From a virus (lineage: Duplodnaviria > Caudoviricetes), in the IMG/VR virus record IMGVR_UViG_3300043414_000517, positions 1 to 26,525 of that record: DNA of 26,525 nt; one strand, 5' to 3'. Positions 5,720 through 23,137 of the stretch are shown in pieces. The translations under genes were made by a program, and so were the position numbers. Each line of letters begins with the position of its first letter. Position 1 is the stretch's first letter. The notes beneath the pieces were generated by a model, which worked only from the letters and a program-made list of their open reading frames with translations, was not told the DNA's origin and did not search any database.

Positions 5720-6457
5720 ATGGAAGAAATCAAACTATACGAAGGCAAAGAAACATTATTCTTTGACCAAGCTGCACATCAATACTTTTGGAACAATGAA
5801 CAGTTGCCTAGTGCCACCGGCATAACCAAAATATTGACACCGGCAAACGTGATCGGCATGTGGAGTTCTAAAATTTGTAGCGAAGAATTTAAGAAGTTAA
5901 TTAGAGCAGGTGTTAGCTATGATGAGATTGAGTTAATTAAAATTGCAGATCAAATTAAAAAAGCACCAAATCAAAGTATGGGAGATGCTGGTTTAATTGG
6001 AACTCAGGTACACAATTTAATTGAAGATTATATTCATAAAGGAATTACTCCTGAGATTATTAATCCTGAGATTAAAAAATCATTTGGTAAATTTAAAGAA
6101 TGGTATGATAAACAAGAAGGCCTAGAAATTGTTTTTACTGAACGCAAAGTTCTTAGTCGTATTCATAAATTTACTGGAACTCTTGATGCTATATTTAAAA
6201 ACAAATCTGGCGAACATATTATCTATGACTGGAAGTCTAGTTCAGGAATTAGAGATTCTATGTTTGTCCAAATTTATCTTTATAAGATTTGTGTTAAAGA
6301 AGAACTTGGGATTGATGTTAAGCAAGGTGTAATTGTTAATTGCACTAAGCAAGGTAAATTAAATATTAAGGAATTTCCAATAAACGAAATACAGGAAGAA
6401 GTAGCGATTGCCTGTCTAAAAATGTATCGCTACTTAAACCAAAAAGGAGAAAAATAA
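5720..6457 (+). CDS. PD-(D/E)XK exonuclease (phage recombination type)
   Basis: LPSATGIT, GTQVHNLIE, E...FTGTLDA...IYDWKSS...QIYLY. Confidence 0.85.
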   Translation: MEEIKLYEGKETLFFDQAAHQYFWNNEQLPSATGITKILTPANVIGMWSSKICSEEFKKLIRAGVSYDEIELIKIADQIKKAPNQSMGDAGLIGTQVHNLIEDYIHKGITPEIINPEIKKSFGKFKEWYDKQEGLEIVFTERKVLSRIHKFTGTLDAIFKNKSGEHIIYDWKSSSGIRDSMFVQIYLYKICVKEELGIDVKQGVIVNCTKQGKLNIKEFPINEIQEEVAIACLKMYRYLNQKGEK

Positions 6458-6458
6458 C

Positions 6459-6968
6459 ATGAACGTACAAGGAGTAATAAAATACGTTTACGATAACAGA
6501 CTTGGAAAAGACGGAATGACCAATAAATTTCCTAATTTCAAATTTGGAATCGGAGAACAACAAATAGTTTTATGGAGTGCCATACTCCACCCTGCCATAT
6601 CTAAGGGAAAAACTGTTTCCGTAACTTGTGGTGCTTCTAAAAAGAATGGTAGTTTGTTTGTTCTTACTAAAGAAGATAAAAGCCCAATGATACAGGAGTT
6701 GCCTACTAGTGCTAATGCCAAACCTGATGTTAGCTTCAATGTTGATGACTTTGAGTCTGAAAACTTTAACGAAGCAGTAACTAGTATTGAAAAAGACATG
6801 GCTAGTTCTCCAGTAGCAACTAAAGCTTTTAACAAAGATGAATATATGTTTGTTATGGCTTTGGCTAAATCAGCTATTGAATCTGGTAAAGTTAATGTTA
6901 ATAAGGAAGAAGTTGATTTGTTGATTAAGGATTTAAAGTTCTTATTCCAAGTTAATTTCTGTAAATAA
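6459..6968 (+). CDS. Putative single-stranded DNA-binding/recombination protein
   Basis: Beta-rich OB-like N-half, acidic/aromatic linker (DVSFNVDDFESENF), located after the exonuclease. Confidence 0.45.
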   Translation: MNVQGVIKYVYDNRLGKDGMTNKFPNFKFGIGEQQIVLWSAILHPAISKGKTVSVTCGASKKNGSLFVLTKEDKSPMIQELPTSANAKPDVSFNVDDFESENFNEAVTSIEKDMASSPVATKAFNKDEYMFVMALAKSAIESGKVNVNKEEVDLLIKDLKFLFQVNFCK

Positions 6969-7762: not shown

Positions 7763-8302
7763 ATGAATGATAAAAAATACATTGAAAACTTTAATCATCA
7801 ATCTTATGAAGTACGCAGCAATAATTATTTATCTATTACTGAATCTCGCTTTACTGATTATTGTACTGTGCGTGGGTATCTTTATAAAAAGCTTGGTCTT
7901 AATGCTGTCAATGATAGCCAAAACTTTTCTGAAAGTGTCATACCACTTTACAGGCACTTGCCACTCATATTCAAGGGGTTACCAGACTACTTCATTTACA
8001 AATCAAAAGAAGAACATGAAAAAAGTGGTAATCAGGAAAAATGCCAATGGTTCGTTGAATTAAAAAATGCAACTTGGGAACAGGGTAAGACTTTAGCTAA
8101 GATTAAAGTTAGAGATTTAAAAAGATATACTTACTTTGAGCAGTCTTTTACAAATCATCATACTAGATTTACTATTTGCTTTCCGTTGGCCGATAAAATT
8201 ATATTTAAAAGTGTAGATCAAATATTAAGGTTATTGCCAAAATCGCAATTAAAAAAGTTTCCAAATGATGGAATAGAATATTTTGAAATTGTAATAGGTT
8301 AA
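7763..8302 (+). CDS. PD-(D/E)XK endonuclease (restriction-like or resolvase-like)
   Basis: E...GLPDYFIY...WFVELK catalytic signature. Confidence 0.7.
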   Translation: MNDKKYIENFNHQSYEVRSNNYLSITESRFTDYCTVRGYLYKKLGLNAVNDSQNFSESVIPLYRHLPLIFKGLPDYFIYKSKEEHEKSGNQEKCQWFVELKNATWEQGKTLAKIKVRDLKRYTYFEQSFTNHHTRFTICFPLADKIIFKSVDQILRLLPKSQLKKFPNDGIEYFEIVIG

Positions 8303-8545: not shown

Positions 8546-8977
8546 TTATCCGTTTTGATCTTCTTTATTTTGTACTGGTCTTGTTGCTAAAGTTCTAGCA
8601 ATAGATTCGCCAGATCGTCCAACTACATAACCACCAAGTCCAATGTTTAAACAAGTCCAAACATCAGATGGTAATTCAATGCCAACTTTTTTAGAAAACA
8701 AAGCTAAGATAATTGGTGAGATAATATAATTAAGAACTAATATACCAATTAAAATATACATAAGTAATGGTCTCCAAGAACTTGCAAACCACCCAGCTTT
8801 TGCTTCGGCTTCTACTATTCTTGCAGATGCTTTTAATTCTTCAGTTCCTGATTGAAGTAATTGCATATTCAAATCAGCTTTTAATTTCTCCTGCAAATCT
8901 TTATCAGGAATAGATTTCTCTATTGATTTAAAAACTGTATTTAAAAGTGGTGCAAAAGCACCAAGCATTGGAAGCAT
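8546..8977 (-). CDS. 3TM holin (GTA-type holin family)
   Basis: IPDKD...KLKA, SWRP motif followed by two TM segments, GYVVGRSGE. Confidence 0.8.
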   Translation of the reverse strand: MLPMLGAFAPLLNTVFKSIEKSIPDKDLQEKLKADLNMQLLQSGTEELKASARIVEAEAKAGWFASSWRPLLMYILIGILVLNYIISPIILALFSKKVGIELPSDVWTCLNIGLGGYVVGRSGESIARTLATRPVQNKEDQNG

Positions 8978-9707: not shown

Positions 9708-9917
9708 TTACTTACTTTTAGATGAATCTATTAGTAGTTCTATATAGTGTTTAGCTTTTTCTAAGTCTAAAACTCCACCCTTCTCTTTAAATCTTAAAAT
9801 ATACTTTATGACATTTCCTTCTACAAATCCAATATTATTTTTAACTATAAACTCAATAGGTTGAATCTTGTATTTAAGGTAGTGATTGCCACCAACTTGT
9901 TTTTTAGATGACTTCAT
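9708..9917 (-). CDS. DUF3310 / T7 gp1.7-like protein
   Basis: QVGGNHY..IQPIEFI..N..GF.EGNVIKY..R...KGG..DLEKAKHY. Confidence 0.85.
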   Translation of the reverse strand: MKSSKKQVGGNHYLKYKIQPIEFIVKNNIGFVEGNVIKYILRFKEKGGVLDLEKAKHYIELLIDSSKSK

Positions 9918-10353
9918 AGATAGTTCTTCCGTTTCCTTTGTATGCTTTTAAATACATCTTACGATTTCCTGAAGTTTTATAAGAACAATGAACCCAACCA
10001 GAATTAGGTTGTTCAGGTTTCCAAAATTCTAAAATACATTGGTCAAAATCTAAATGATTAACTATCCAATCAGAAACTTCTTTATTAGGTATTCCAAGTA
10101 TTTCAAAATCTACTGCCATTCCAAATGCGTGTTGGCTTGTAGCAGAAGAACCTATTGCTTGGCATAAAGCAGGAGAACGATAACCAGAAGTTATTACAAT
10201 TTGACTATCAAAGTTATTGCTTACAGGTTCAAGAATAAACTGTACTACGTTTTGTAAGTTAATAAGAATTTCATCTGTTGGAGTGTTGTCTATTCCAAGT
10301 CTAATTGCTGTGTCTGAATAAGTAAGTTCTTTTATAGAAAAACTTTGAGTCAT
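9904..10353 (-). CDS. Peptidase M15A-family endolysin
   Basis: SGYRSPAL..AIG....SQH..G.AVD and WVHCS zinc motifs. Confidence 0.9.
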   Translation of the reverse strand: MTQSFSIKELTYSDTAIRLGIDNTPTDEILINLQNVVQFILEPVSNNFDSQIVITSGYRSPALCQAIGSSATSQHAFGMAVDFEILGIPNKEVSDWIVNHLDFDQCILEFWKPEQPNSGWVHCSYKTSGNRKMYLKAYKGNGRTIYEVI

Positions 10354-11540: not shown

Positions 11541-12992
11541 TTAACCTCGTTTACCTTTTAACAATTCTAGTTGAATAATGATCTCGTTTTGTTCTTCTTG
11601 TATATCATTTAATATTTTTTGTCTAGCTACCAGAGGGTCTTTGGATATGTAAGAGTTTAAATTAACATTTTGGTAAACTGGTTCTTGTGCCAAAGTATAT
11701 TGCATAAAGAAATCAGGATTAGGAACTCCCACCATTTGTCTTTGCTGATAAAATGGTTTAGATTCATATACACTTAAACTAGGTTGATTAATTTTTAATG
11801 CGTCAATTTTTATCTCTTGTACTGATTTTACTTTTAAGTCTCCTATTTTTATTTCCGTTCCTACTTTACTGTCTGTTAGTTTTGTTTTTACTTCCTGTGG
11901 TGTACTTGTTGCAGTTTGTTTTTCTTCGGTTACTGAAGTCTTAGTTTCCTTAGGAGTTTCTTTAGTTTCTTCCTTAGCAACTTCTTTAGGTGTTTCTTTA
12001 GCAGTTTCTTTTGTTTCTTCTTTTGGAGATTCTTTAACTACTTCCTTAGGTGCTTCTTTTACTATTTCTTTTGGTGGTTCAATTTGTTGTTCTGCAATTT
12101 TTTTATCTTCAGGTGGTGCTTGGATAATAAATGGTGTTGTGTCTCCCACAAACTCTTTAATCATTACTGGTTCTTGAACTGGTGCTATTGATGCAGGAAC
12201 AATAGATATGTTAGTGTTTTGTAATGTAGTTAATGCAGTTTGAGTTGAAGTATCTAATGGACAAGTTGATGGAGTATTTTGCCAACAATAAATTATCTCA
12301 GTTGTAGTTATTAATTCAGAAGTAGTTTGAGTATTAATTTTATTATAAGAAACACTAATGCTTGGAGATGCTACATCATAGCCACTATAATTTGATGATG
12401 CAGAATTAAAATCAAATCTTAACTTTCCTGAGTAAGTATTATTGTTTGAGTTAATAATTATGTTATCTAATGGAATGTAAGTATACCCAGCTATGTTACC
12501 AGCACCATTTCCACTTGCTGTATTGCTAGACAAAAATCTATTTTGCGTAATTACTTCTCCAGTAGTTAAGTTCATTACTGATTGAGATATTGTTAAACTC
12601 TTTTGATTATTAAACCAACTATCAACATAAGCAGAAGCAGATTGAGTAAATCCTAAATTCTGTTCAGCTTTGGTTATCCCAATAGAAGTATAAGGAGATG
12701 TAGTCTCAGCATAAGAACTAGAACCTTTGCCTGTAATATAATTACAACCCATATCACTAGAACCACCAGTTATATTTGTTCCAGTCCAATTAGATGAGCA
12801 GAAGTTTTTATTAACTAGTAAGTTACCTGTGTTGTAAGGAAGTATTGTAGTTGTAGTTGTATCAACTTTAGTAATTGTTATTTTAGTTGCATCTCCAACT
12901 TGTGGAGTGTTTGGAGTTATCTTAACGTCTATGATTTGAGAGTATGCTGTACTAAAGAATAATAAGCTACTTAGTATTAGCTTTAGTTTCAT
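11541..12992 (-). CDS. Exported protein with beta-rich domain, KE-repeat stalk and C-terminal coiled coil
   Basis: Signal peptide MKLKLILSSLLFFSTAYS; two Cys pairs; repeat tract. Confidence 0.75.
   Translation of the reverse strand: MKLKLILSSLLFFSTAYSQIIDVKITPNTPQVGDATKITITKVDTTTTTILPYNTGNLLVNKNFCSSNWTGTNITGGSSDMGCNYITGKGSSSYAETTSPYTSIGITKAEQNLGFTQSASAYVDSWFNNQKSLTISQSVMNLTTGEVITQNRFLSSNTASGNGAGNIAGYTYIPLDNIIINSNNNTYSGKLRFDFNSASSNYSGYDVASPSISVSYNKINTQTTSELITTTEIIYCWQNTPSTCPLDTSTQTALTTLQNTNISIVPASIAPVQEPVMIKEFVGDTTPFIIQAPPEDKKIAEQQIEPPKEIVKEAPKEVVKESPKEETKETAKETPKEVAKEETKETPKETKTSVTEEKQTATSTPQEVKTKLTDSKVGTEIKIGDLKVKSVQEIKIDALKINQPSLSVYESKPFYQQRQMVGVPNPDFFMQYTLAQEPVYQNVNLNSYISKDPLVARQKILNDIQEEQNEIIIQLELLKGKRG
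11940..12077 (-). repeat. Degenerate 12-bp (4-aa xKEx) tandem repeat
   Basis: PKEIVKEAPKEVVKESPKEETKETAKETPKEVAKEETKETPKETK; edges approximate. Confidence 0.8.
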
Positions 12993-13635: not shown

Positions 13636-13746
13636 CTATTTAATGTTTAAATGAATCTTAATTGATTCTATGAAGTCGTTAATTGCAAGTTCGTACTTCC
13701 AACCTAAGTAAACACCTATAATAATTCCAATTATTAAATATATCAT
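13636..13746 (-). CDS. Micro membrane protein (36 aa)
   Basis: MIYLIIGIIIGVYLGWKYELAINDFIESIKIHLNIK. Confidence 0.65.
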   Translation of the reverse strand: MIYLIIGIIIGVYLGWKYELAINDFIESIKIHLNIK

Positions 13747-13752
13747 GTAATT

Positions 13753-13781
13753 GTTATATTTTAAATTTGCAAAATCTGCAA
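13753..13781 (-). promoter_or_regulatory. Sigma70-like promoter just outside the left inverted repeat
   Basis: TTGCAG-17 bp-TATAAC on the minus strand, ATG 6 nt downstream; TTGCA-N5-TGCAA dyad at 13767-13781. Confidence 0.55.
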
Positions 13782-13793
13782 GATGTGTTTTTC

Positions 13794-13820
13794 CTTCAAA
13801 CAAATGGAAGTGGGGTTTTG
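13794..13820 (+). repeat. Left 27-bp inverted repeat of the tail-fibre cassette
   Basis: CTTCAAACAAATGGAAGTGGGGTTTTG, exact reverse complement of 15269-15295. Confidence 0.95.
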
Positions 13821-14267
13821 AGCTTTGCAGGTGTTTCTCCGAGTGCTGGACAAATTATTCAAGTAGTTAATGCAACAGATTCAACTGGAAGATCAACTAC
13901 ATCAGGTTCTTACGTTACTGGTTCAAATACATTATCAGTAACTATAACTCCTTCATCTGCTTCTAATAAAATATTTGTTACAGCAAGTGTTGGAGTGCAA
14001 GTAACTGGCACTAATAATACTGCAAATTTTACTGTATATAGAAATGGAAGTACAAATTTAGGTGGTGGCTCAAATAATGGTTTAATAGCTACTTATTCAG
14101 ATGCTGGTAATACTTGTGAAGGAATAGATATTTCTCTTTTAGATTCACCTTCAACAACTTCTGCAACTACTTATCAAGTTTATATGAAAACTGATACTGG
14201 CGGAACAATATATGTAAATGCACAAGGAATGAAAAATTCAATAACAGCATTTGAAGTAAAAGGTTAA
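13794..14267 (+). CDS. Silent alternative tail-fibre C-terminal (receptor-binding) module
   Basis: Begins LQTNGSGVLSF, identical to fibre residues 231-241; only a TTG pseudo-start at 13767 with no RBS; opposite strand to the late operon. Confidence 0.85.
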   Translation, partial: LQTNGSGVLSFAGVSPSAGQIIQVVNATDSTGRSTTSGSYVTGSNTLSVTITPSSASNKIFVTASVGVQVTGTNNTANFTVYRNGSTNLGGGSNNGLIATYSDAGNTCEGIDISLLDSPSTTSATTYQVYMKTDTGGTIYVNAQGMKNSITAFEVKG

Positions 14268-14269
14268 TT

Positions 14270-14557
14270 ATGAAAATAGGAATTTGTCAAACTATACTAG
14301 CTTTAAATCCTACTGCTGAAGTTTCTTGTTCAGATGATGATGTTAATCAAATTATTTGGGAAAACGGAACTACACCAATATCTAAAAATACTATTCTTGC
14401 TAAACAATCTGAACTACAAGCACTAGAAGATGTTTACGATAATAGACGTAATGAATATGGTTCTGTTGTATCTCAATTAGATGAGATTTATCATAGTGGT
14501 TTAGATTCGTGGAAAGCAAGATTAGCTAATATTAAAGCCAAATATCCTAAAGAATAG
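14270..14557 (+). CDS. Putative fibre assembly chaperone for the alternative module
   Basis: ILALNP.AE...IIWE.GTTP...Y..RR.EY....QLD.IYH.G...WK....IKAKYPK; directly follows the alternative tip. Confidence 0.7.
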   Translation: MKIGICQTILALNPTAEVSCSDDDVNQIIWENGTTPISKNTILAKQSELQALEDVYDNRRNEYGSVVSQLDEIYHSGLDSWKARLANIKAKYPKE

Positions 14558-14759
14558 ACTTAACTTCTTCTTCAGTTAAACCAAGTGCTTTTAACTTAGT
14601 AATAGCTGAGTCTTTTCTAATTTGTTCTAACGCAAGTTTTTCTTGTTTTAATTGTTCTGCATCAATAACATTTTGATTTTCAATCTGCATTTGATTTAAT
14701 TCTTCTTGTGTTAAATCAACTAACTGATTTCCTTGTGGAGTTATAATTAATTTTTTCAT
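14547..14759 (-). CDS. Putative fibre assembly chaperone for the currently fused module
   Basis: VDLTQEEL...SAITKLKALGLTEEEV; ATGA overlap with the fibre stop. Confidence 0.7.
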   Translation of the reverse strand: MKKLIITPQGNQLVDLTQEELNQMQIENQNVIDAEQLKQEKLALEQIRKDSAITKLKALGLTEEEVKSIL

Positions 14760-15985
14760 TTAATTCCGTATAAAGTTATTTTATCTATTGTGAATGTATA
14801 ACCAGCTTGATTTAAAATAGTTATCCCACTAATTGCAGATGTAACATTGTGTACTCCTGCACCAGCAGTCCAAGTAGCATATGAACCATCTAATCCATTT
14901 GTAGTCCAAGTAAATGCTTTTGCATAACTAGTTCCAAGTGGATTATAAATTTCAATAATTACATCATTTCTTCTTGTTGTTGAAGCCGACCAATATCCAA
15001 TATGAAAATAATCTGTTTCACTAAGATATACATCTGCTGGTTGATTAGATTGATATTCAGTAGCCATGTCATAGCTACCAGTTTGTGCTGTGCCAGATTT
15101 ATTAACTTTAAAATTAATACGATTAGCTGTATTCATATATCCACCATTTAAGTATAAAATATATTTGTCATAAGTAGATGTAAAGTAACCATCTATACTT
15201 ACTGCTGAACTTGCACTTGCACTTGTAGATAATAGTTTAACAAAATCCGAGCCAACCGAACTGAACGACAAAACCCCACTTCCATTTGTTTGAAGCACTT
15301 GACCTGAAGTTCCGTCTGCACTTGGTAGAGTTAAAGTTAAATTTGATGCGATTGTGTCTGGTGCTTTTATTGCAATATAGTTTGCACCATTGTCAGTATC
15401 TTCAGGCAATCTAATTTCAGAACCAGCAGTAGCATTTCCAATTACAGCAAGAGGAGTAGAAAAACTCAAAGAATCAAAACTTAAATTCCCAGCACCATCT
15501 GTCTTTAAGAACTGACCAGCAGAACCATCAGCAGAAGGAAGAATCCAAATTTTATCAGCACTCAAACTAGCAGGTGCTTTAAAGCCAACATAATTTACTC
15601 CGTTAGCAGTAGTTTCACTAAAACGAATTTCTTTTTGATTTTGTAAAATTAAATTAACAGAAGAAGTTTGAGAAGTATCTGAAAGTGTTAAAACAGTTCC
15701 AGTAGCAGTAGTAGTTAAACCAGTTACAGAAACTGTACTGTCTAACCAGTTTACAGTATTACCTACGTGGTCAATTGTTGCTAAAGAGATGTCATCAGCA
15801 CCATCGTAATACTTTAAAGTTGGAGATGTTGCTGATGTCGTATCAAGCCAAATTGTACCAGCTACAGCACCAGATGGTCTAGATGTTCCTGATTGAGATG
15901 TGTTAATAGCTTGTAATGCAGAATTAAGATCGGTTCTAAAAGAAGGGAAAGATTGGTTTGCTATTACTAAATCGTTTTGGCTCAT
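14756..15985 (-). CDS. Tail fibre / receptor-binding protein
   Basis: D.VIANQSFPSFRTDLN.AL attachment region after the J-like gene, two internal repeats, variable tip. Confidence 0.9.
   Translation of the reverse strand: MSQNDLVIANQSFPSFRTDLNSALQAINTSQSGTSRPSGAVAGTIWLDTTSATSPTLKYYDGADDISLATIDHVGNTVNWLDSTVSVTGLTTTATGTVLTLSDTSQTSSVNLILQNQKEIRFSETTANGVNYVGFKAPASLSADKIWILPSADGSAGQFLKTDGAGNLSFDSLSFSTPLAVIGNATAGSEIRLPEDTDNGANYIAIKAPDTIASNLTLTLPSADGTSGQVLQTNGSGVLSFSSVGSDFVKLLSTSASASSAVSIDGYFTSTYDKYILYLNGGYMNTANRINFKVNKSGTAQTGSYDMATEYQSNQPADVYLSETDYFHIGYWSASTTRRNDVIIEIYNPLGTSYAKAFTWTTNGLDGSYATWTAGAGVHNVTSAISGITILNQAGYTFTIDKITLYGIK
15263..15631 (-). repeat. Two 52-aa fibre shaft repeats
   Basis: EIR..E...NG.NY...KAP........LPSADG..GQ.L.T.G.G.LSF at 15476-15631 and 15263-15418. 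Confidence 0.85.
15269..15295 (-). repeat. Right 27-bp inverted repeat, inside the fibre gene (codons 231-239)
   Basis: CAAAACCCCACTTCCATTTGTTTGAAG on the + strand. Confidence 0.95.
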
Positions 15986-16004: not shown

Positions 16005-18857
16005 TTAAAATCCTTTTGCAATATAATCAAATGTTCTACTAACTCCAGTACCACCACTATTTTTAAAAGCTATATTGAAGCCATTAATAGTCTTACTGTT
16101 TAAGGTATAAAAATCACCAGTAGCCATTCCTTGATTAGTAATACCGATAGCATAATTAACAGAATAAAATGGTCTTGTAAAGGTAACAGTATAAGTTCCA
16201 GTACCACTTACTAGATCATTTCCATTTTGAATAGTATCTTCAACATCTATTGTTACACTTAAAGCAGATACAACTGGAGTAGAAGCTAAATCATCTGATC
16301 TCATCATAAGTCTAAATTTAAAATATCTAGCTGTGTAATCGCCAACTACAAAATTTCTAAAAGAAGTATAAGTTATATTGTCAGGAGATAAAGCAATTTC
16401 TAAATGAGCATTACAGTTAGCAGGAGAATCTCCGTCAAAGTTAGAAGCACTATCGTCAAATAATCCAAGATTAGAATCAAAAAGGTTATCTATATTATCA
16501 ACTGTTTGTGTAAGAGAAGCAGTTACACGAACTGTGTAACTTCCACCAATGTCAATAGGAGAAGTAAATTCATAATAACCAGTTGGAGATAAATCGTATG
16601 TAGTTACACCAGCATCAAAAAAAGCAGTAGCAGAATCAAATAGTCCAACAGCAGAATCAAAAGATTCAGTAGAGTCTAATCTCAAAGCACCACTATCAAC
16701 ATAAACATTAGTTTTAGTTCCTGAGAATGTAGGTGATTCAGTTTGTGTTACAACAGCATTAAAGTTTCCAACCTCTAATAAGTTAGTTGATATAATAGCT
16801 TCATTAGATGAGAAGTTTCCGTTTTTATCAATCGCTTTGATTAGGTACGAACCGATACGAGCAGGTAGAGTAACTGATGTAGCTGGTCTTGCAACTTTTT
16901 CAACAAGAGAAACTGAGTTCTGCCATTCAGCACCAGTAGTTAATGTAGAGAAACGAATTGCATAATAAGCTAAGTCTAAATCTGGTATTTGTGTCCAAGA
17001 CAAGTGAGCATCACGACCAATAATATTACAAGAAAAATCTTCAACATCAGCAGGTGGTAATAATCCACCGACAATAGTTCTTGATGCAGAAGTATATGTT
17101 GAACCAACTCCTAAAGTATTAAATGCTTTTACTCTTACATTATAAAGAGAACCATCTACTACGTTTAATATTCTTTGAGTTAATCCTTTTCCTTGTCCAT
17201 GAATAATGTAATCAGTAGCTGTACTTAATTTGTATTCAACTTGGTAGTAATCTACAAAGCTATCTGGTGATGCACCAATAGTGCAATCCAAACAAGTTAT
17301 GACAACTCCGTCTGAGTATTCCACTAGTTGATCTGATAATGTTACTGAAGCTGGTGCAGATACAGAAAATGGATTAGGTAATACAGTATCAGCTATTGTT
17401 GGTGCTTGTGATTTTGATTCCCAGACGTAAAATGAATCCTGATGTTCCTCTAAGCCAAGATTAACTGTGCTGTCAGCATTAATAGATAATGACATAACTC
17501 GGAATGGTTTAGCACTAAATCCTGTTGTATCATAAGTTGCTGTAACTATATCTCCAATGGCTAAGTTTAATCCTTCTGAAGTAATAGTTACTTCTGCCTT
17601 TAAACAATTTCTTGATCTCTTTAATATGTTCTCGCAAATTTCTTCAGCTTGATAAGGTGATGTAACATGAATCATGTCAAAACTTCTTTCAAGTATTGTA
17701 TCGTTATCAGCAGATAACATTGTTGCGTATTTATCTTCTGTAGCTAATGCTGAATCGTCATAAGGTGGGTATGAAACTGTATCTGATTGATAATCTTTAT
17801 CTGGGTTTGTAAATGTTCCTACAACTCTATTGTATTTCTCAGATTTGCTTTCACCTTGTAATTTAACTTCGCTTACAACATTATCTTTAGTTAATAATAA
17901 TTGTGATGAACCAGTACCTTCAATAATAACTTTGTATTTACCTTGAGTGTAATTAAAGATTGCTCTCATAGGTACAAGTAATTCTCTTACATTATCAATT
18001 ACTTTTTTCTCACTATCTAATACTGCATGTGTTTCAAATAAGTTAATTGCAGTTCCACTTGTGTAAGGTGTTACCTGAGTCTCGCAAGTATTTGCAGAAG
18101 TTTTAAATGAATCGTAATTAGTTTCAAACGCAGAATTAGGTAAACCTTTTCCGTATCTAGCATTTCTTAAATAGTCTAAAAGAATTAAAGATGAGTTCTT
18201 AGAATAAGCCCAAGTAGAAGCTGTGTCTTGTCTATGTGAACCTGAACCACCTTTAGTTGAATCTAATCTTGGGTCGTAAATCTTTTTACCTTTTAATGTA
18301 ACTCTAACTTCTGGTATTCCACTAAATGCGTCTTGATTCCATTTTAAACGAATAGCTAAATAAGCAAGGCCAGATAACTTATGATTAGTAGTCCAGTTAG
18401 CTTGTTCTTGTAATAATGAAGATGCAGATTGATTATCTAAACCATAAAATCCTTGAACTGATATTAAGCTGCCATCTTTATAAAAATTAGTATCTGTACT
18501 ATCTACTGTTCTTAATGTTCCGTCAGTTAATGCACCACTCCAAGTTACTAGTTTGTCATCAACATAAATCTCATCTATGCTTTCAATTCCTGCACCACCA
18601 CCTTCGCAGAGAACCCCAGCGATATAAAGGTATTGATTATCAGCACCAGAACTTTCAACATAAACTCTTGTAAGTCCAACTTGTCTTTGACCATACACAA
18701 CAGGTATTGGATTATTGTTTGCGTCTTTGTTTACTAAGATACCTTTAACTTCATCATTAGATGATTGTCTTGGTGCTTTAGGTTTTGGTGCAATTAAATA
18801 ACTTACTGCTGTTGTTATTAGTGTTACTATAATTGATGTTAATAATGCTTCACCCAT
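16005..18857 (-). CDS. Tail tip / host-specificity protein (lambda J-like, FN3 domains)
   Basis: 950 aa; PIPVVYG, LKGKKIYDPR, LLDYLRNARYGKG, YNVRVKAFN FN3-like strand. Confidence 0.9.
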   Translation of the reverse strand: MGEALLTSIIVTLITTAVSYLIAPKPKAPRQSSNDEVKGILVNKDANNNPIPVVYGQRQVGLTRVYVESSGADNQYLYIAGVLCEGGGAGIESIDEIYVDDKLVTWSGALTDGTLRTVDSTDTNFYKDGSLISVQGFYGLDNQSASSLLQEQANWTTNHKLSGLAYLAIRLKWNQDAFSGIPEVRVTLKGKKIYDPRLDSTKGGSGSHRQDTASTWAYSKNSSLILLDYLRNARYGKGLPNSAFETNYDSFKTSANTCETQVTPYTSGTAINLFETHAVLDSEKKVIDNVRELLVPMRAIFNYTQGKYKVIIEGTGSSQLLLTKDNVVSEVKLQGESKSEKYNRVVGTFTNPDKDYQSDTVSYPPYDDSALATEDKYATMLSADNDTILERSFDMIHVTSPYQAEEICENILKRSRNCLKAEVTITSEGLNLAIGDIVTATYDTTGFSAKPFRVMSLSINADSTVNLGLEEHQDSFYVWESKSQAPTIADTVLPNPFSVSAPASVTLSDQLVEYSDGVVITCLDCTIGASPDSFVDYYQVEYKLSTATDYIIHGQGKGLTQRILNVVDGSLYNVRVKAFNTLGVGSTYTSASRTIVGGLLPPADVEDFSCNIIGRDAHLSWTQIPDLDLAYYAIRFSTLTTGAEWQNSVSLVEKVARPATSVTLPARIGSYLIKAIDKNGNFSSNEAIISTNLLEVGNFNAVVTQTESPTFSGTKTNVYVDSGALRLDSTESFDSAVGLFDSATAFFDAGVTTYDLSPTGYYEFTSPIDIGGSYTVRVTASLTQTVDNIDNLFDSNLGLFDDSASNFDGDSPANCNAHLEIALSPDNITYTSFRNFVVGDYTARYFKFRLMMRSDDLASTPVVSALSVTIDVEDTIQNGNDLVSGTGTYTVTFTRPFYSVNYAIGITNQGMATGDFYTLNSKTINGFNIAFKNSGGTGVSRTFDYIAKGF

Positions 18858-19270
18858 TAAATATGAAACTCCCTTTTAAATTTTTCTGATGTTCTGTAAA
18901 TAATGTTATTGTCTTTAATTCTTAACCATTTAACACATTGATCTACTTCTAACTTTTCTCTAAAATATTCTTTAGTCCAAGACATAATCTCTCTTAAATT
19001 ACTTTTAGCAATAGTTTCAATATGCCATATATTGTTTCCTGATTTCCATTCATTTGGTTTTATTTTTCCAGTAAGTTTAAATCGTTCTTCAACTGTATCG
19101 CTTAAATAAGCCCAGTTAGTAAAACCAATATCTTTTCCATCAACTCTATGAATTTGGTATTGATCTAAATTTAAAGATGGAATTACTTTTTTAACTATAT
19201 CTTCGTAAGTAAGTTTATCATATCTAGGAAATTGTCTAAACAAATGAACTACTCTATATAAATCAGTCAT
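18857..19270 (-). CDS. HlyC/RtxC-like toxin-activating acyltransferase homologue
   Basis: PSL.L.QY.IHR.DGK.IGFTNWAYLS..VEERF......PNEWKSGNNIWHIE.IA matches the HlyC pattern; TAATG coupling on both sides (start 19270). Confidence 0.75.
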   Translation of the reverse strand: MTDLYRVVHLFRQFPRYDKLTYEDIVKKVIPSLNLDQYQIHRVDGKDIGFTNWAYLSDTVEERFKLTGKIKPNEWKSGNNIWHIETIAKSNLREIMSWTKEYFREKLEVDQCVKWLRIKDNNIIYRTSEKFKREFHI

Positions 19271-19824
19271 TAAGCTGTTCCCCATTTAATCTTCTGTGCT
19301 GTTTGACTTGCAAACTCCATACCTTTATCTGTTGAGAATAATAATTTTTGAGAGTTTTCAGATGTTCTTCTTCCTTGTATCTTTTCAAAATCTGCCCAAT
19401 GTGAAGCTATAATAATATTAATTGATGATGTAGTTGCGTTTTCTTCTAATGAGAAGTTAGCTATTCTTCCTTCAAATAATAAAAATGGGTCAGCTATTAA
19501 AGCACCAGTATCATCTAAGAAACCTCTATAAAGATTTGCAGGTTTATTCATGTAATCATTATTTAGTAAAAGACTAATCATTGTTGTATCTGCACCTGAG
19601 AATTTTAATGTAAGATTGTTTACTGATACGTCAGCAGTTTCTTGAACTTCAGAACTTCCTAAAAATAATGATGAAGATGTGTATGTATTGCCATTGAAAG
19701 TTAAGTTAGCAAAATGATCTGTGTAATATGTTCCTGTGCTTATACCTAAGTAAATAAGTTCTACTGGATTAAGTTTGTTTGTAGCTAATTCTGCTATGAC
19801 ACCAGCAGTTAATGATCTTGTCAT
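19270..19824 (-). CDS. Tail hub / minor tail protein (gpL/DUF2163-like)
   Basis: TD....LTFNGNTY, L.FSG.D, LFEGRI, D.GMEFA; lies between Dit and J. Confidence 0.75.
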   Translation of the reverse strand: MTRSLTAGVIAELATNKLNPVELIYLGISTGTYYTDHFANLTFNGNTYTSSSLFLGSSEVQETADVSVNNLTLKFSGADTTMISLLLNNDYMNKPANLYRGFLDDTGALIADPFLLFEGRIANFSLEENATTSSINIIIASHWADFEKIQGRRTSENSQKLLFSTDKGMEFASQTAQKIKWGTA

Positions 19825-20426
19825 TATAGTACCTCTATAAGATCAACTTCGTATTGGAAATAGTTTTCTGTGCTAATATTAAACTCTTGAACATCTCCAG
19901 TTAATCCGACTGTAAAATCTACATTAGAATAAATTAATATAGCATTATCAGATACAGCAGTTCTTAATGGTGGTTCAAATGTTAATGTTCCTGCACCAGA
20001 ACCATTAGATGATACATCTGCCATAACCATATAAACTTTGTTCTGTCCTGTGAATCTAAAATAATCCCCTGCTTTAAATACTCCTGATGTACTATTTGCC
20101 ATACCATCTATTGCTACTGAAGTTACTCCAGCACTTATAGAACCATTAACTGATATAACTCCAGTCGCTACTCCTAAAGAATTATAAACAGTAGGTGGTA
20201 CAAATGTAAAAGATTCCATCTGTGATCTTTGCTTTAATATAAAAGCATTAATAGGTGCAAACTCAATTCTTGTCATAACAGGAAATCTAATTCTTAATCT
20301 AAATTTTTGTGCATCAATTTGTCTTGCTTGTCGTCTGCCAGAAGCAGTAGTTGTAACAAGAGTATTTTGTTCTGAAGATATTGCTACCGAACTTGGTGTT
20401 GGACTTGTTGGGAATGTGCCACTCAT
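19824..20426 (-). CDS. Distal tail protein (Dit-like)
   Basis: T.SGRRQ.R, F...QR...ESFTF, FKAGDYF.F, LTFEPPLR; follows the tape measure. Confidence 0.75.
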   Translation of the reverse strand: MSGTFPTSPTPSSVAISSEQNTLVTTTASGRRQARQIDAQKFRLRIRFPVMTRIEFAPINAFILKQRSQMESFTFVPPTVYNSLGVATGVISVNGSISAGVTSVAIDGMANSTSGVFKAGDYFRFTGQNKVYMVMADVSSNGSGAGTLTFEPPLRTAVSDNAILIYSNVDFTVGLTGDVQEFNISTENYFQYEVDLIEVL

Positions 20427-22246
20427 ACTACGTTTGATCTACCTTTCGCATTAGCACCTTGATTAACTAAGTTAATTATAGTTGCTCTATTATCAATTAA
20501 TAATTCTTTAATACCTCTAACATCATTTGCTTGAATATTAAATGTTATATTCATTCCACTTCCTAGATCATGGTTTGGTACAATAGTTCCATTTGTTGAA
20601 GGAACAAATAATTCTCTGCCACGTTCTCCTACTGTTATTGGAACACCACCTTTAACAGAACCACCTTCTGCAAATGGAGATGACAAAGCAGCATTAATAG
20701 GAGTCATTTCTCCACCACCACCACCGAATAAAGAACTTAAAAAGCTTCCACTACCACTAAATGCACTACTCATACTTGCTGCTAACTGTGCATATAGTTC
20801 TGTTGTTTTAATTTTTTGATAAGCAATATCTAAAAGTAATGTTGCAATATATTCTAATTGTTTAGAGATCATTCTAACTAAAATATCATCTACTATTTTT
20901 CTAAATGTAACTCCTAGTTTTTCTCCAAGAACTATTGACTTAGCTATTCCTAATGAAAAATCTTCAATACCTTTTTTTAAACCATCAGATATTGTTTTTG
21001 TTACACCATCTAATGAATACATTTCTTTTGTAAGATCAGACAAGTTATTACTATTCTTTTGAAACACTCCGTTTAATACGTTTTGAAAGTTTAATATTTG
21101 ACTGTTAGCACCAAACTGTTCTAATGTTTTCATTAGAGTATCTTCAAAGCATTTATCAATTTCTGTTATGTTATCTATTGCTTCTTTGGTATTTGTTTTG
21201 TTAAATGGGTTAAGATCAGACCATTTAAGATTTTTAATAGTTTCTTTAAATGATTCAAATTTCTTTATAATCCAATCTAAGTTATCCCATATAAGAACTG
21301 CTGATATTGCAATACCTGCTGCTATTGCTGTAAATGGATTTGCTGCTGCAACTAAGGCCAATCCAAAAAATGCTTGTGTCAGTAATCTTATATAGTCTAA
21401 TGCTTTTAAAGCTGCCATACCAATTAAAACATCAAATAAAATTACAAAATTATCTTTAATAAATACTAATGTTTTACCAAATGCTATCAATACATTTGCT
21501 AAAGCAGCACCTAATTCTTCTGAAAATTTATTTATGCTTTCACCATTTTTTTGAAAGTATTTATCTAGTTCATTTAATTGTTTAGTTAATGTTGTAAAGA
21601 ATCCTTTAGACACAGCAGCTTCAAATGCTGTGACAAAATTTTGTATTGCTATTGTGCTACCGGCTAATCCTTTTTTTAAATCTTCATTAGCAGAACCAAA
21701 TTTTCCTCTAGCACCAAAAGCTTTTTCTAATGATTGATTAAATCCATTAAAACTTTTGTCAGCATAATCTCCAAATCCTTGTATGCTTTTAATTCCTTTG
21801 TCTTGAAATAATCTTGCAGAGTCAGCACCTTTTAATAATCCTTTTGCTATTTGATCTGAAGCATCAACAAAACTTATTTTAAAGTAAGCTGCTGAGTTAG
21901 CTGCTTGTTCTAATTTCTTTGCTAATTCTTCTGGTGATTTAGCAACTGATAATAAATCTCCTGATGCTTGTAGTACATCTAATAAAGGTATTCTTGCTTT
22001 GATTGCGAATTGAGTTAATTGGTCAAATGCTTGGCTTCCACCATAACCTGATTTTGATAATTGTTCTAATCTTGCTCTTACATCTTCTGTTGCTTTTCCT
22101 ACATCAACAAAATCTTTAACTACTAAACCAGCACCAAGTCCTAAAAGAGCATTTCTTACATTGAATATAGAATTTTTTATATCTGTAAAAGCTTTAGACG
22201 CATTGTCTATTGCATTAAGTCTTATGTTTAGTTGCTGATCGGCCAT
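20423..22246 (-). CDS. Tape measure protein
   Basis: IRLNAIDNASKAF N-terminus, helical/hydrophobic middle, FAEGG.V..G.P..VGERGRELFVP C-terminus. Confidence 0.92.
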   Translation of the reverse strand: MADQQLNIRLNAIDNASKAFTDIKNSIFNVRNALLGLGAGLVVKDFVDVGKATEDVRARLEQLSKSGYGGSQAFDQLTQFAIKARIPLLDVLQASGDLLSVAKSPEELAKKLEQAANSAAYFKISFVDASDQIAKGLLKGADSARLFQDKGIKSIQGFGDYADKSFNGFNQSLEKAFGARGKFGSANEDLKKGLAGSTIAIQNFVTAFEAAVSKGFFTTLTKQLNELDKYFQKNGESINKFSEELGAALANVLIAFGKTLVFIKDNFVILFDVLIGMAALKALDYIRLLTQAFFGLALVAAANPFTAIAAGIAISAVLIWDNLDWIIKKFESFKETIKNLKWSDLNPFNKTNTKEAIDNITEIDKCFEDTLMKTLEQFGANSQILNFQNVLNGVFQKNSNNLSDLTKEMYSLDGVTKTISDGLKKGIEDFSLGIAKSIVLGEKLGVTFRKIVDDILVRMISKQLEYIATLLLDIAYQKIKTTELYAQLAASMSSAFSGSGSFLSSLFGGGGGEMTPINAALSSPFAEGGSVKGGVPITVGERGRELFVPSTNGTIVPNHDLGSGMNITFNIQANDVRGIKELLIDNRATIINLVNQGANAKGRSNVV

Positions 22247-22394
22247 GTTCTAGTTTCTCTTTATCTGCCTTCACAGTAAAATAAGCTATCCAATAATAAA
22301 ATTCATCTTGTGTCATACACAAAATTTCTTCCATACTTTTTTTTAATTCGTGACCTAGAGCAAGTATAGAAAACAACTCAGGGTCAAATCTTAC
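22215..22394 (-). CDS. Tail assembly chaperone -1 frameshift extension (gpGT-like T portion)
   Basis: -1 frame reads VRFDPELFSILALGHELKKSMEEILCMTQDEFYYWIAYF... to TAA at 22215. Confidence 0.8.
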   Translation of the reverse strand, partial: VRFDPELFSILALGHELKKSMEEILCMTQDEFYYWIAYFTVKADKEKLEHGRSATKHKT

Positions 22395-22726
22395 TTTTTT
22401 TCGGCTTGATCGTAAGAAATACCGGACAACATTTGTGTCGCTACAGAAGCTATAACATTTGCGTCAGCATTATTCAATAATGTTAGTTTATCATCTAACT
22501 TAAATAATTTATTTCCTTCTCCGTCTTTTGCTTTTAAAACTATTGCATCTACCAATACTCCTAGATCATCATTTTTAGCACCTTTAAAAAGGTTTCTTTT
22601 CTCACCCAAAGTAAATGGTGAACAATATATTATTAAAGGTTTGCCTTCCTCGCCCCATTCAGCTACCTCAATCTTTGTTATACCAAGACTTTCAAACTGT
22701 GCCTTCACTCTATCTATTACGTTCAT
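22391..22726 (-). CDS. Tail assembly chaperone (gpG-like)
   Basis: Between tube and tape measure; IEVAEWG, AKDGEGNKLF; ends EKK on a slippery site. Confidence 0.85.
   Translation of the reverse strand: MNVIDRVKAQFESLGITKIEVAEWGEEGKPLIIYCSPFTLGEKRNLFKGAKNDDLGVLVDAIVLKAKDGEGNKLFKLDDKLTLLNNADANVIASVATQMLSGISYDQAEKK
22394..22400 (-). other. Slippery heptamer A AAA AAG
   Basis: GAA AAA AAG TAA at the end of the chaperone gene. Confidence 0.85.
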
Positions 22727-22750
22727 TATATTCTTCCTATGTTTAATTAA

Positions 22751-23137
22751 TTAAGCAGTTGCGAATGTTAAAGCACCAGTTCCTTGAAAAGAAATTGATG
22801 ATTCAACTAATCCGTCAAAAGAAGCACTTACAGATTTAGCAGTTATAATTGCTGAACCTGAATAATATTTGTCTCCTGTTGATGCACCTTCTGGGTAAAC
22901 TTTGATCGTTACACTTGTTCCTAAAGCTAATGCTAATTGACCAGCATCAGTTTCGTCCCAAAATAAAGAAGCAGTACCTGACCAAGCTGTTAATCCAGCT
23001 TTGTAAGTTCTTGCTGTTGTTCCCATGTTAGAAGTCTCAATAGTATCGCCAGTTGTTTCTAAACTGAATGATCTAAGTTCTCCAACTGTATCTGTTCCTA
23101 CTTTAACTGTTCCTTCTGAACCAGTATGAGTTGCCAT
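22751..23137 (-). CDS. Tail tube (major tail) protein
   Basis: G.EG.VKVG, IETS.MG..ARTY..GL..WSG, YSGSAIIT, SISFQGTGAL. Confidence 0.9.
   Translation of the reverse strand: MATHTGSEGTVKVGTDTVGELRSFSLETTGDTIETSNMGTTARTYKAGLTAWSGTASLFWDETDAGQLALALGTSVTIKVYPEGASTGDKYYSGSAIITAKSVSASFDGLVESSISFQGTGALTFATA

Follow-up and report, generated by a model that had tools for sequence, protein, structure and literature searches.

The virus contig IMGVR_UViG_3300043414_000517, analysed over its whole length of 26,525 nt (hereafter the window; about 89% complete), carries an invertible cassette of alternative tail fibre tips. This cassette is real, well supported and widespread in freshwater pelagiphage-like phages, and it works like the G segment of phage Mu and the C segment of P1 (its three-tip forms like the Min and Rin systems), but without the linked recombinase that defines those systems. 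It comes with nested forms of the switch, several independent repeats, a promoter-like element linked to the cassette, and no recognisable invertase.

The two arms of the cassette (Table 1) are 27 nt long, are 100% complementary and enclose 1502 bp. They form the top inverted repeat of the window, in which no other exact repeat is longer than 16 nt, and triplet-shuffled windows (n = 30) yielded longest repeats of 14 to 20 nt. Across the family, the repeat core is 26 bp (core a), and base 27 mostly differs between the arms. With the right arm lying inside the fibre gene, in-silico inversion replaces the present fibre of 409 amino acids (aa) by one of 387 aa, in frame. Each tip is followed by its own small gene, these two genes being convergent and overlapping by 11 bp, and the segment is flanked by a J-like gene and by an open reading frame (ORF) of 36 aa that is kept at the same place in relatives both with and without the cassette. 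The 27-bp repeat, the in-frame fusion, the convergent small genes and the two flanking genes had been described in an earlier note on this DNA and were reproduced upon re-measurement. That note had also called the silent frame start-less; the left arm does open a 157-aa frame with no ATG, but an in-frame TTG is present nine codons upstream (13767), so that only part of the description stands. The N-terminal 80 aa of the constant part match the “putative tail fiber” of HTVC111P/112P and gp47 of HTVC202P. The constant region also contains an unpaired exact copy of the repeat (site b) used by the nested switches described below, and from its sequence the window looks like a nested switch whose third cassette was lost or never gained. 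The G-rich end of the core together with a TTG (15269–15283, minus strand) resembles a ribosome site and start for class-A tips, and gene callers begin some tip-A proteins at this TTG (P0242 and P0249). A stand-alone tip is possible, like the separate tip-B-homologue ORFs of cultured pelagiphages.

The 27-mer was found in 27 IMG/VR contigs, 24 of which have an inverted partner with the same 26-bp core 1.4 to 1.7 kb away. Scanning metagenomes with the core gave 101 stretches, representing 91 distinct loci, and the flanks were examined for the first 80. Two tip classes, A and B, can be told apart by the bases immediately inside the arm. By site context, class A has 30 expressed and 25 silent entries and class B has 29 expressed and 37 silent ones, while one context is unclear. 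There are 35 distinct complete pairs: 19 express A (A/B), 13 express B (B/A) and three are B/B. Both orientations are thus present among related contigs, with the breakpoints at the repeats. One such case is L176, in which the constant region is 100% identical to that of the window at the protein level (P0221) and 93.7% identical at the DNA level. The segment itself, alignable over its full length at 76.8%, runs the other way round in L176, and the change of direction falls at the arms. L210/L222 (817 bp, 96.3%) and L130/L136 (916 bp, 90.8%) each have a half-cassette in common, likewise in opposite orientations. When orientation was mapped on a tree built from the fixed silent flank (32 rows, without the three B/B pairs), at least seven changes were needed, five of them forced by starred branches. 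Shuffled orientations required 10.4 changes on average, and 10 to 13 of 500 shuffles were as low as seven; orientation is therefore partly inherited. Recombination between phages could have contributed extra orientation changes on this tree.

The silent tips are intact. Of 49 examined, 48 are full length, no ATG is present within 20 codons upstream in 53 of 56, and the ratio of non-synonymous to synonymous substitution (dN/dS) is 0.33 in three silent-silent tip pairs, suggesting that silent tips are under purifying selection. The tips are also diverse, with 115 clusters at 95% among 122 tips and, at the protein level, 13 clusters, and the partner tips differ in every pair of contigs that have one tip in common. 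Fibre relatives are mostly without the cassette: a repeat of at least 16 bp occurs in 12 of 80 loci chosen by the constant region, many others being too short to tell, and in four of 16 loci that were chosen by a hub gene and have 2.5 kb or more of sequence downstream of it. A homologous constant part is present in 38 of the 120 matches listed for fused class-B products in the protein database, and a single-sequence scan with tip B returned one locus. Homologues of tip A, up to 93% identical, sit in other proteins of that database. In L237, L310 and proteins P0241 and P0243, tip A is found at 72 to 93% identity on other N-termini, without repeats; tips therefore move between phage types. Six regions of cultured pelagiphages that contain homologues of the tips or small genes have longest repeats of just 12 to 14 bp. 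L010, L035 and L045 have a single site with no partner within the sequence examined, and are possibly locked or ancestral forms. In L139, L141 and L158, the silent arm is lengthened by about 24 bp of coding-like sequence, the partners lying beyond the contig ends; one identical 120-bp silent flank of this form occurs with either tip class.

A second, nested switch is present in 12 contigs (L406, L210, L212, L213, L214, L216, L219, L222, L225, L155, L166 and L175). In these, a 30-bp repeat, b, beginning at codon 158, encloses the inner switch plus a third tip of 159 to 225 aa. All four nested states exist: the outer segment is forward in seven contigs (inner A in four, B in three) and flipped in five (A in two, B in three). 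Altogether, five repeat families were recognised: a (26 bp), b (30 bp), c (41–57 bp), d (61–67 bp, three sites) and e (19–20 bp). They have at most 7 bp in common, save for 17 bp shared by a and d. Dyad symmetry was not found in families a to d, where the best self-complementarity is 0.36 to 0.43; it is 0.71 for the 19-bp e. A hairpin or folded-strand site was rejected when tested on site a (fold z +1.0 to +1.6). Ten substitutions that distinguish L375 from L039 in family c are present in both arms, and arm a has a variant that is about 24 bp longer. The cassette was found in HTVC111P-, HTVC023P- and HTVC010P-like phages, family d being HTVC023P-like and family e HTVC010P-like. In the HTVC023P-like L231 (4113–6496), the arrangement is shufflon-like, with three sites and one expressed, one direct silent and one inverted silent tip; three tips thus stand behind its 61–67 bp repeat, compared with two in the window. 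Family e is represented by L322 (4986–6572; its genome, G010, is HTVC010P-like) and L325 (327–1895). The silent flank of family e contains, at an offset of 15 bp, a degenerate version of the coding sequence that lies upstream of its expressed arm. A scan of HTVC010P-like capsid loci (n = 80) gave one AT-rich 20-bp repeat and is uninformative, because the 10-kb flank probably ends before the fibre gene.

The tips are predicted to bind sugars. Tip B was modelled with a predicted local distance difference test score (pLDDT) of 84.5 as a TNF/C1q-like lectin fold, its best structural match being the PLTL lectin 9ib7 (TMq 0.76, E 3.8e-6), and the predicted fold is also like BC2L-C and Pgp3 domains. 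For tip A, a beta-sandwich was predicted, with middling galectin/ConA-like matches plus one tail fibre (VIA Z ≤8.6) and no Foldseek match at E 0.001. The Mu-like layout and switch proposed in the earlier note are supported by relatives in both orientations, intact silent tips and lectin-like predicted tip folds. Of 101 tips, 91 have a small gene behind them, and 83 of these genes fall in one cluster. The label of assembly chaperone is weak for the small genes, because Phage_tail_APC scored over its cut-off in just one of the 16 small-gene matches tested. The 95-aa small gene has homologues in 11 cultured Pelagibacter phage records.

An outward-facing promoter-like motif, TTGCAG-17 nt-TATAAC, lies outside the silent arm, 6 nt ahead of the ATG of the 36-aa gene. 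The form TTG-N3-17 nt-YATAAC is present just outside the outermost silent arm in nine of 10 distinct cassette-bearing upstream regions and in none of 48 cassette-free regions, in which the 36-aa gene directly follows another gene. A consensus promoter scanner missed the motif, and on its own it is not above chance genome-wide (two in the window against a shuffled mean of 2.45). Its −10 box is without the final T, as are the −10 boxes of many alphaproteobacterial promoters (PMC7703639). The motif might function as a promoter, judged from its sequence and position. As a reversed cassette would block read-through, the promoter-like element likely restarts transcription of the downstream genes.

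No recognisable serine or tyrosine recombinase is encoded in the 26.5 kb, as the earlier note had stated; the profile searches were empty, and the same holds for a near-complete relative and seven further contigs with the cassette. Resolvase and Phage_integrase matched none of the 48 window ORFs and nothing in the six frames. PF00239 (serine recombinase) was not found in the window, G001, G004 or G010–G013 (controls positive in 12–13 of 14 genomes), nor PF00589 (tyrosine recombinase) in these same genomes or in G006, G008 and G009, which were searched for Phage_integrase only (controls 14 of 14). G001 is cassette-bearing, 32.6 kb long, 100% complete by CheckV and apparently short of about 1 kb of head genes only; Pfam revealed no recombinase among the 48 window ORFs plus 22 further ORFs of G001. 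Apart from the cassette genes and one shadow frame, every gene that the window shares with G001 also occurs in cassette-free relatives; among the predicted proteins on the contigs examined from the other families, just those of the tail cassette and a terminase match the window phage or its relatives. A PD-(D/E)XK exonuclease, which also occurs in cassette-free relatives, is a candidate part of a phage recombination module. The 169-aa protein beside it occupies the place of a protein that, in cultured relatives, has an acidic tail like that of single-stranded DNA-binding protein; it was considered as an annealase and rejected, as no Pfam, PDB or Atlas family matched.

Table 1. Features of the window, with positions counted from its first nucleotide
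Feature	Position	Strand	Remarks
Left, silent-side arm	13794..13820	+	First 26 bp = family core a
Right, expressed-side arm	15269..15295	-	Fibre gene codons 231-239, LQTNGSGVL
Constant N-terminal fibre part	15296..15985	-	230 aa
Tip A, expressed now	14756..15295	-	179 aa with hinge
Tip B, silent	13794..14267	+	157 aa with hinge
Small gene behind tip A	14547..14759	-	70 aa; likely assembly chaperone (family-level, weak)
Small gene behind tip B	14270..14557	+	95 aa; likely assembly chaperone
Unpaired exact copy of site b	15483..15512	-	30 bp, from codon 158, in constant region
Promoter-like motif, outward	13753..13781	-	12 nt outside left arm
Hydrophobic ORF	13636..13746	-	36 aa; first gene past cassette
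J-like central tail protein	16005..18857	-	Upstream flank; PHROG 31, E 1e-69
PD-(D/E)XK exonuclease	5720..6457	+	Candidate part of phage recombination module
169-aa protein	6459..6968	+	Beside exonuclease
Restriction-endonuclease-like protein	7763..8302	+	179 aa; lead only; 89% in cassette-free G003 (via G001)

As both orientations occur in relatives and no flipping enzyme is recognisable, general recombination likely flips the cassette. We lean towards a slow, homology-driven process with no dedicated invertase, and rank it ahead of a host site-specific recombinase. With two alternative tips held head-to-head between identical repeats, we infer the rate, the enzymes and the host-range effect of the flip as follows: a crossover anywhere in the 26-bp core would join the constant 230 aa in frame to the other tip; the same crossover would turn the small gene of that tip into the transcribed direction; general homology-dependent recombination, carried out by host RecA-type enzymes or by a phage exonuclease/annealing module, would likely flip the segment at a low rate; and the flip would swap the predicted sugar-binding tip and, with it, likely the host strain bound. 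The shared hinge sequence would likely let phages trade tips too, and flipping may be reversible within one lineage. The five unlike repeats, the lack of dyad symmetry in a to d and the concerted changes in family c speak for a mechanism that requires the two arms to be identical to each other. Minimal pairing lengths of 23–27 bp for Red-beta and 31–34 bp for RecA have been reported (PMC3945230), and the modal 26 bp falls inside the former range and just under the latter. Among the drivers listed in the earlier note, we favour short-homology recombination and disfavour an unrecognised phage enzyme, as leanings rather than demonstrations. In its full form, we can offer only a tentative proposal, to which we give slightly less than even credence: that lytic freshwater SAR11 phages have a programmed way of switching receptors without a dedicated enzyme, by means of 19–67 bp hinge repeats flipped by general recombination; that these repeats are nested to yield three tips and originated at several hinges, in three phage families unrelated to one another; and that they also serve as a common connector for a community pool of more than 100 lectin-like tips.

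Several observations weigh against general recombination. The 26 bp of core a is below the RecA range, and the 19–20 bp of family e is below both ranges. Pfam detected no annealase (RecT, ERF, Sak or Sak4) in the window or G001. The flipped, strand-changing junction of the window phage was not found in Logan contigs; this is weak evidence, because contigs drop rare variants. Minor 31-mers occur at the left arm in run X1 (depth 4–5 against 43) and could stem from relatives. The protein database does not contain the exact flipped product of the window phage (best match 65%), and no two contigs among the 35 have both tips near-identical and flipped. In addition, exact core a is present in 122 of 124 distinct site contexts, a count that is biased because most contexts were retrieved by the core sequence itself. 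The core uses rare codons (GGG 0.02 and TCG 0.02), the second Gly is GGG in 10 of 10 paired hinge 30-mers and in seven of 65 unpaired ones, and the bases just inside the arms are stereotyped at sites a and b alike. Core, codons and inner flanks together resemble a protein-recognised site, as would be expected if a host site-specific recombinase (an Xer-like tyrosine recombinase or a serine invertase) acted in trans with relaxed specificity. Further in line with this, 17 bp of core a are kept in an unrelated HTVC023P-like phage, the likely host is the only thing common to the three phage families, and published work proposes trans-acting invertases for loci that lack a recombinase (PMC6109161, PMC7672463). 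We nevertheless regard a host recombinase as unlikely, though as the strongest of the alternatives: families c and e have no site in common with a, b or d; a to d are without dyad symmetry while the changes in family c are concerted in both arms; and the exact core is absent from 185,579 GTDB genomes. The invariant core, its rare codons and the stereotyped inner flanks could also be explained if a, b and d share an ancestor, or if selection keeps them compatible with a common pool of tips.

Less probable is an unrecognised phage enzyme, for example a core gene such as that for the 179-aa nuclease-like or the 169-aa protein, that targets the hinge. Several core proteins are without an assigned family, and the window and G001 are short of about 11% of the genome and of about 1 kb, respectively; but besides the cassette genes and the shadow frame no gene tracks the cassette, and the cassette occurs in two further pelagiphage-like families, whose examined contigs matched the window phage or its relatives in so few genes. 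We consider it more doubtful still that there is no intragenomic flipping today, that recombination between phages has spread the two orientations as long-standing alleles, and that the silent tip is just a donor or relic. This would fit the missing flipped junction and product, the weak clustering of orientation on the flank tree and the differing partners in each shared-tip pair. It is opposed by the intact silent tips under apparent purifying selection, the exactly matched arms in five sequence families, the identical 120-bp silent flank with both tip classes, the existence of all four nested states and the promoter-like motif tied to the cassette. An assembly artefact, in which chimeric assembly of related phages made the repeat or the orientation differences, is very improbable: although all data are metagenomic contigs, many relatives with the same hinge share one sample and the three B/B pairs may be chimeras, the Logan contigs of run X2 cross each arm unbroken in the window orientation with 0 other letters, the same layout was found in dozens of contigs independent of one another, and neither a cassette-specific promoter-like motif nor a non-coding flank can come from mis-joining.

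The window has a guanine-plus-cytosine content of 31.6%, and the two runs (X1 and X2) that contain the bulk of this DNA are metagenomes from a single freshwater sample. Pfam/PHROG-type profile scans identified capsid, scaffold, tail tube, tape measure, Dit, hub and J-like genes. The nearest cultured phages, HTVC112P, 202P, 026P and 111P (capsid identity 47–50%), infect marine Pelagibacter. Gene order is similar to that of HTVC111P-type pelagiphages, whose genomes are about 32 kb; capsid, portal, terminase and tail genes are homologous and syntenic, placing the phage in this group, and portal and terminase, compared via G001, are 53–56% identical. As in that group, neither DNA polymerase nor integrase was found among the window ORFs or the G001 ORFs scanned. 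HTVC111P-type phages are lytic, without integrase, and HTVC111P is a podovirus by microscopy (bioRxiv 10.1101/2019.12.14.876532); the tape measure, tail tube and Dit genes of the window (20423–23137, minus strand) suggest a short non-contractile tail. Unlike the window, these closest, marine relatives have no inverted repeat of at least 18 bp, and their tail genes are all on one strand. The host is probably freshwater SAR11, judging from the relatives, the base composition and the freshwater runs. The GTDB search with the core gave no host link, and the capsid gene matched seven contigs from metagenome-assembled genomes, none with Pelagibacterales in its title. A cultured LD12 host exists.

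Other genes of the window deserve mention. An HlyC-family acyltransferase (PF02794, E 3e-18; 18857–19285, minus strand) lies between the baseplate-hub and J-like genes and is also present in HTVC111P, 112P and 026P; acylation of a tail protein is one possible role. A 483-aa protein (11541–12992, minus strand) has an N-terminal hydrophobic stretch and a Glu/Lys-rich repeat with a 12-bp period (11907–12086), and no match to it appears in the matching-region list of near-complete G001. Two peptidoglycan hydrolases (362–979 and 9904–10353) and a holin with three transmembrane segments (8546–8977) are all on the minus strand; the hydrolases are a glucosaminidase with an N-terminal hydrophobic stretch and a peptidase M15, and the latter and the holin are downstream of the promoter-like motif of the cassette. 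In G001, a glycosyltransferase-like gene cluster lies directly ahead of the terminase (L199:9129–11766).

Like the cassette, Mu G with Gin and P1 C with Cin have a constant fibre N-terminus, an in-gene crossover site, convergent pairs of tip and small gene, and repeats of comparable size (about 26–30 bp). Crossover sites of Gin and Cin consist of two-fold symmetric half-sites, and a Fis-dependent enhancer is involved. Compared with Mu and P1, the cassette phages have no serine invertase beside the segment or recognisable elsewhere, they use five unrelated repeat sequences, with no dyad symmetry in arms a to d, and an outward promoter-like motif stands at the place of gin. They also differ in their likely SAR11 hosts and in having relatives that are lytic, without integrase (bioRxiv 10.1101/2019.12.14.876532). 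The role of Mu G inversion is treated in bioRxiv 10.64898/2026.02.14.705889. The Min shufflon of p15B and the Rin shufflons of bifidophages have more than two tips, as do L231 and the nested switches, but there a recombinase flanks the tips and a single site is repeated (11 bp in Rin; PMC6109161), whereas the nested switches have no recombinase and combine a 26-bp repeat at one hinge of the fibre gene with an unlike 30-bp repeat at a second hinge. A gene-altering inversion in the structural region, likewise with no flanking recombinase, is described for bifidophages Bb423phi2 and 689b-1 (PMC6109161). That case is one 500-bp inversion with an 8-bp site in two prophages, with gene functions unknown and a trans invertase proposed (PMC6109161), while the present one is population-wide, in lytic-type phages, with arms of 19–67 bp and about a dozen tip families. 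Genome isomers of Anabaena cyanophages arise by inversion at inverted repeats with no dedicated recombinase identified, but with repeats of 400–700 bp and a segment of about 30 kb, and a fibre-tip fusion is not described in the available part of that preprint (bioRxiv 10.64898/2026.02.14.705889). Recombinase-less invertible loci have been noted in bacteria (PMC9881135, PMC7672463), and the viral invertons of PMC13501310 come from gut contigs. “Invert” is absent from the main text of the Fonsibacter phage paper PMC6811365 and from that of a freshwater metaHi-C preprint. A literature search, covering main texts with most subscription papers outside its scope, found no inversion in pelagiphages or SAR11 phages.

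Inversion of fibre tips is known from textbooks as a property of temperate phages that encode their own invertase. Here, its layout spans lytic-type phages related to viruses of SAR11, which is among the most abundant freshwater lineages. The hypervariable island of freshwater SAR11 holds glycosyltransferase genes (PMC6018831), and a switchable spare tip together with a shared connector for tip trading might offer these phages a route for tracking surface-glycan diversity. If general recombination does flip the cassette, searches anchored on invertases would overlook a class of phage phase variation.

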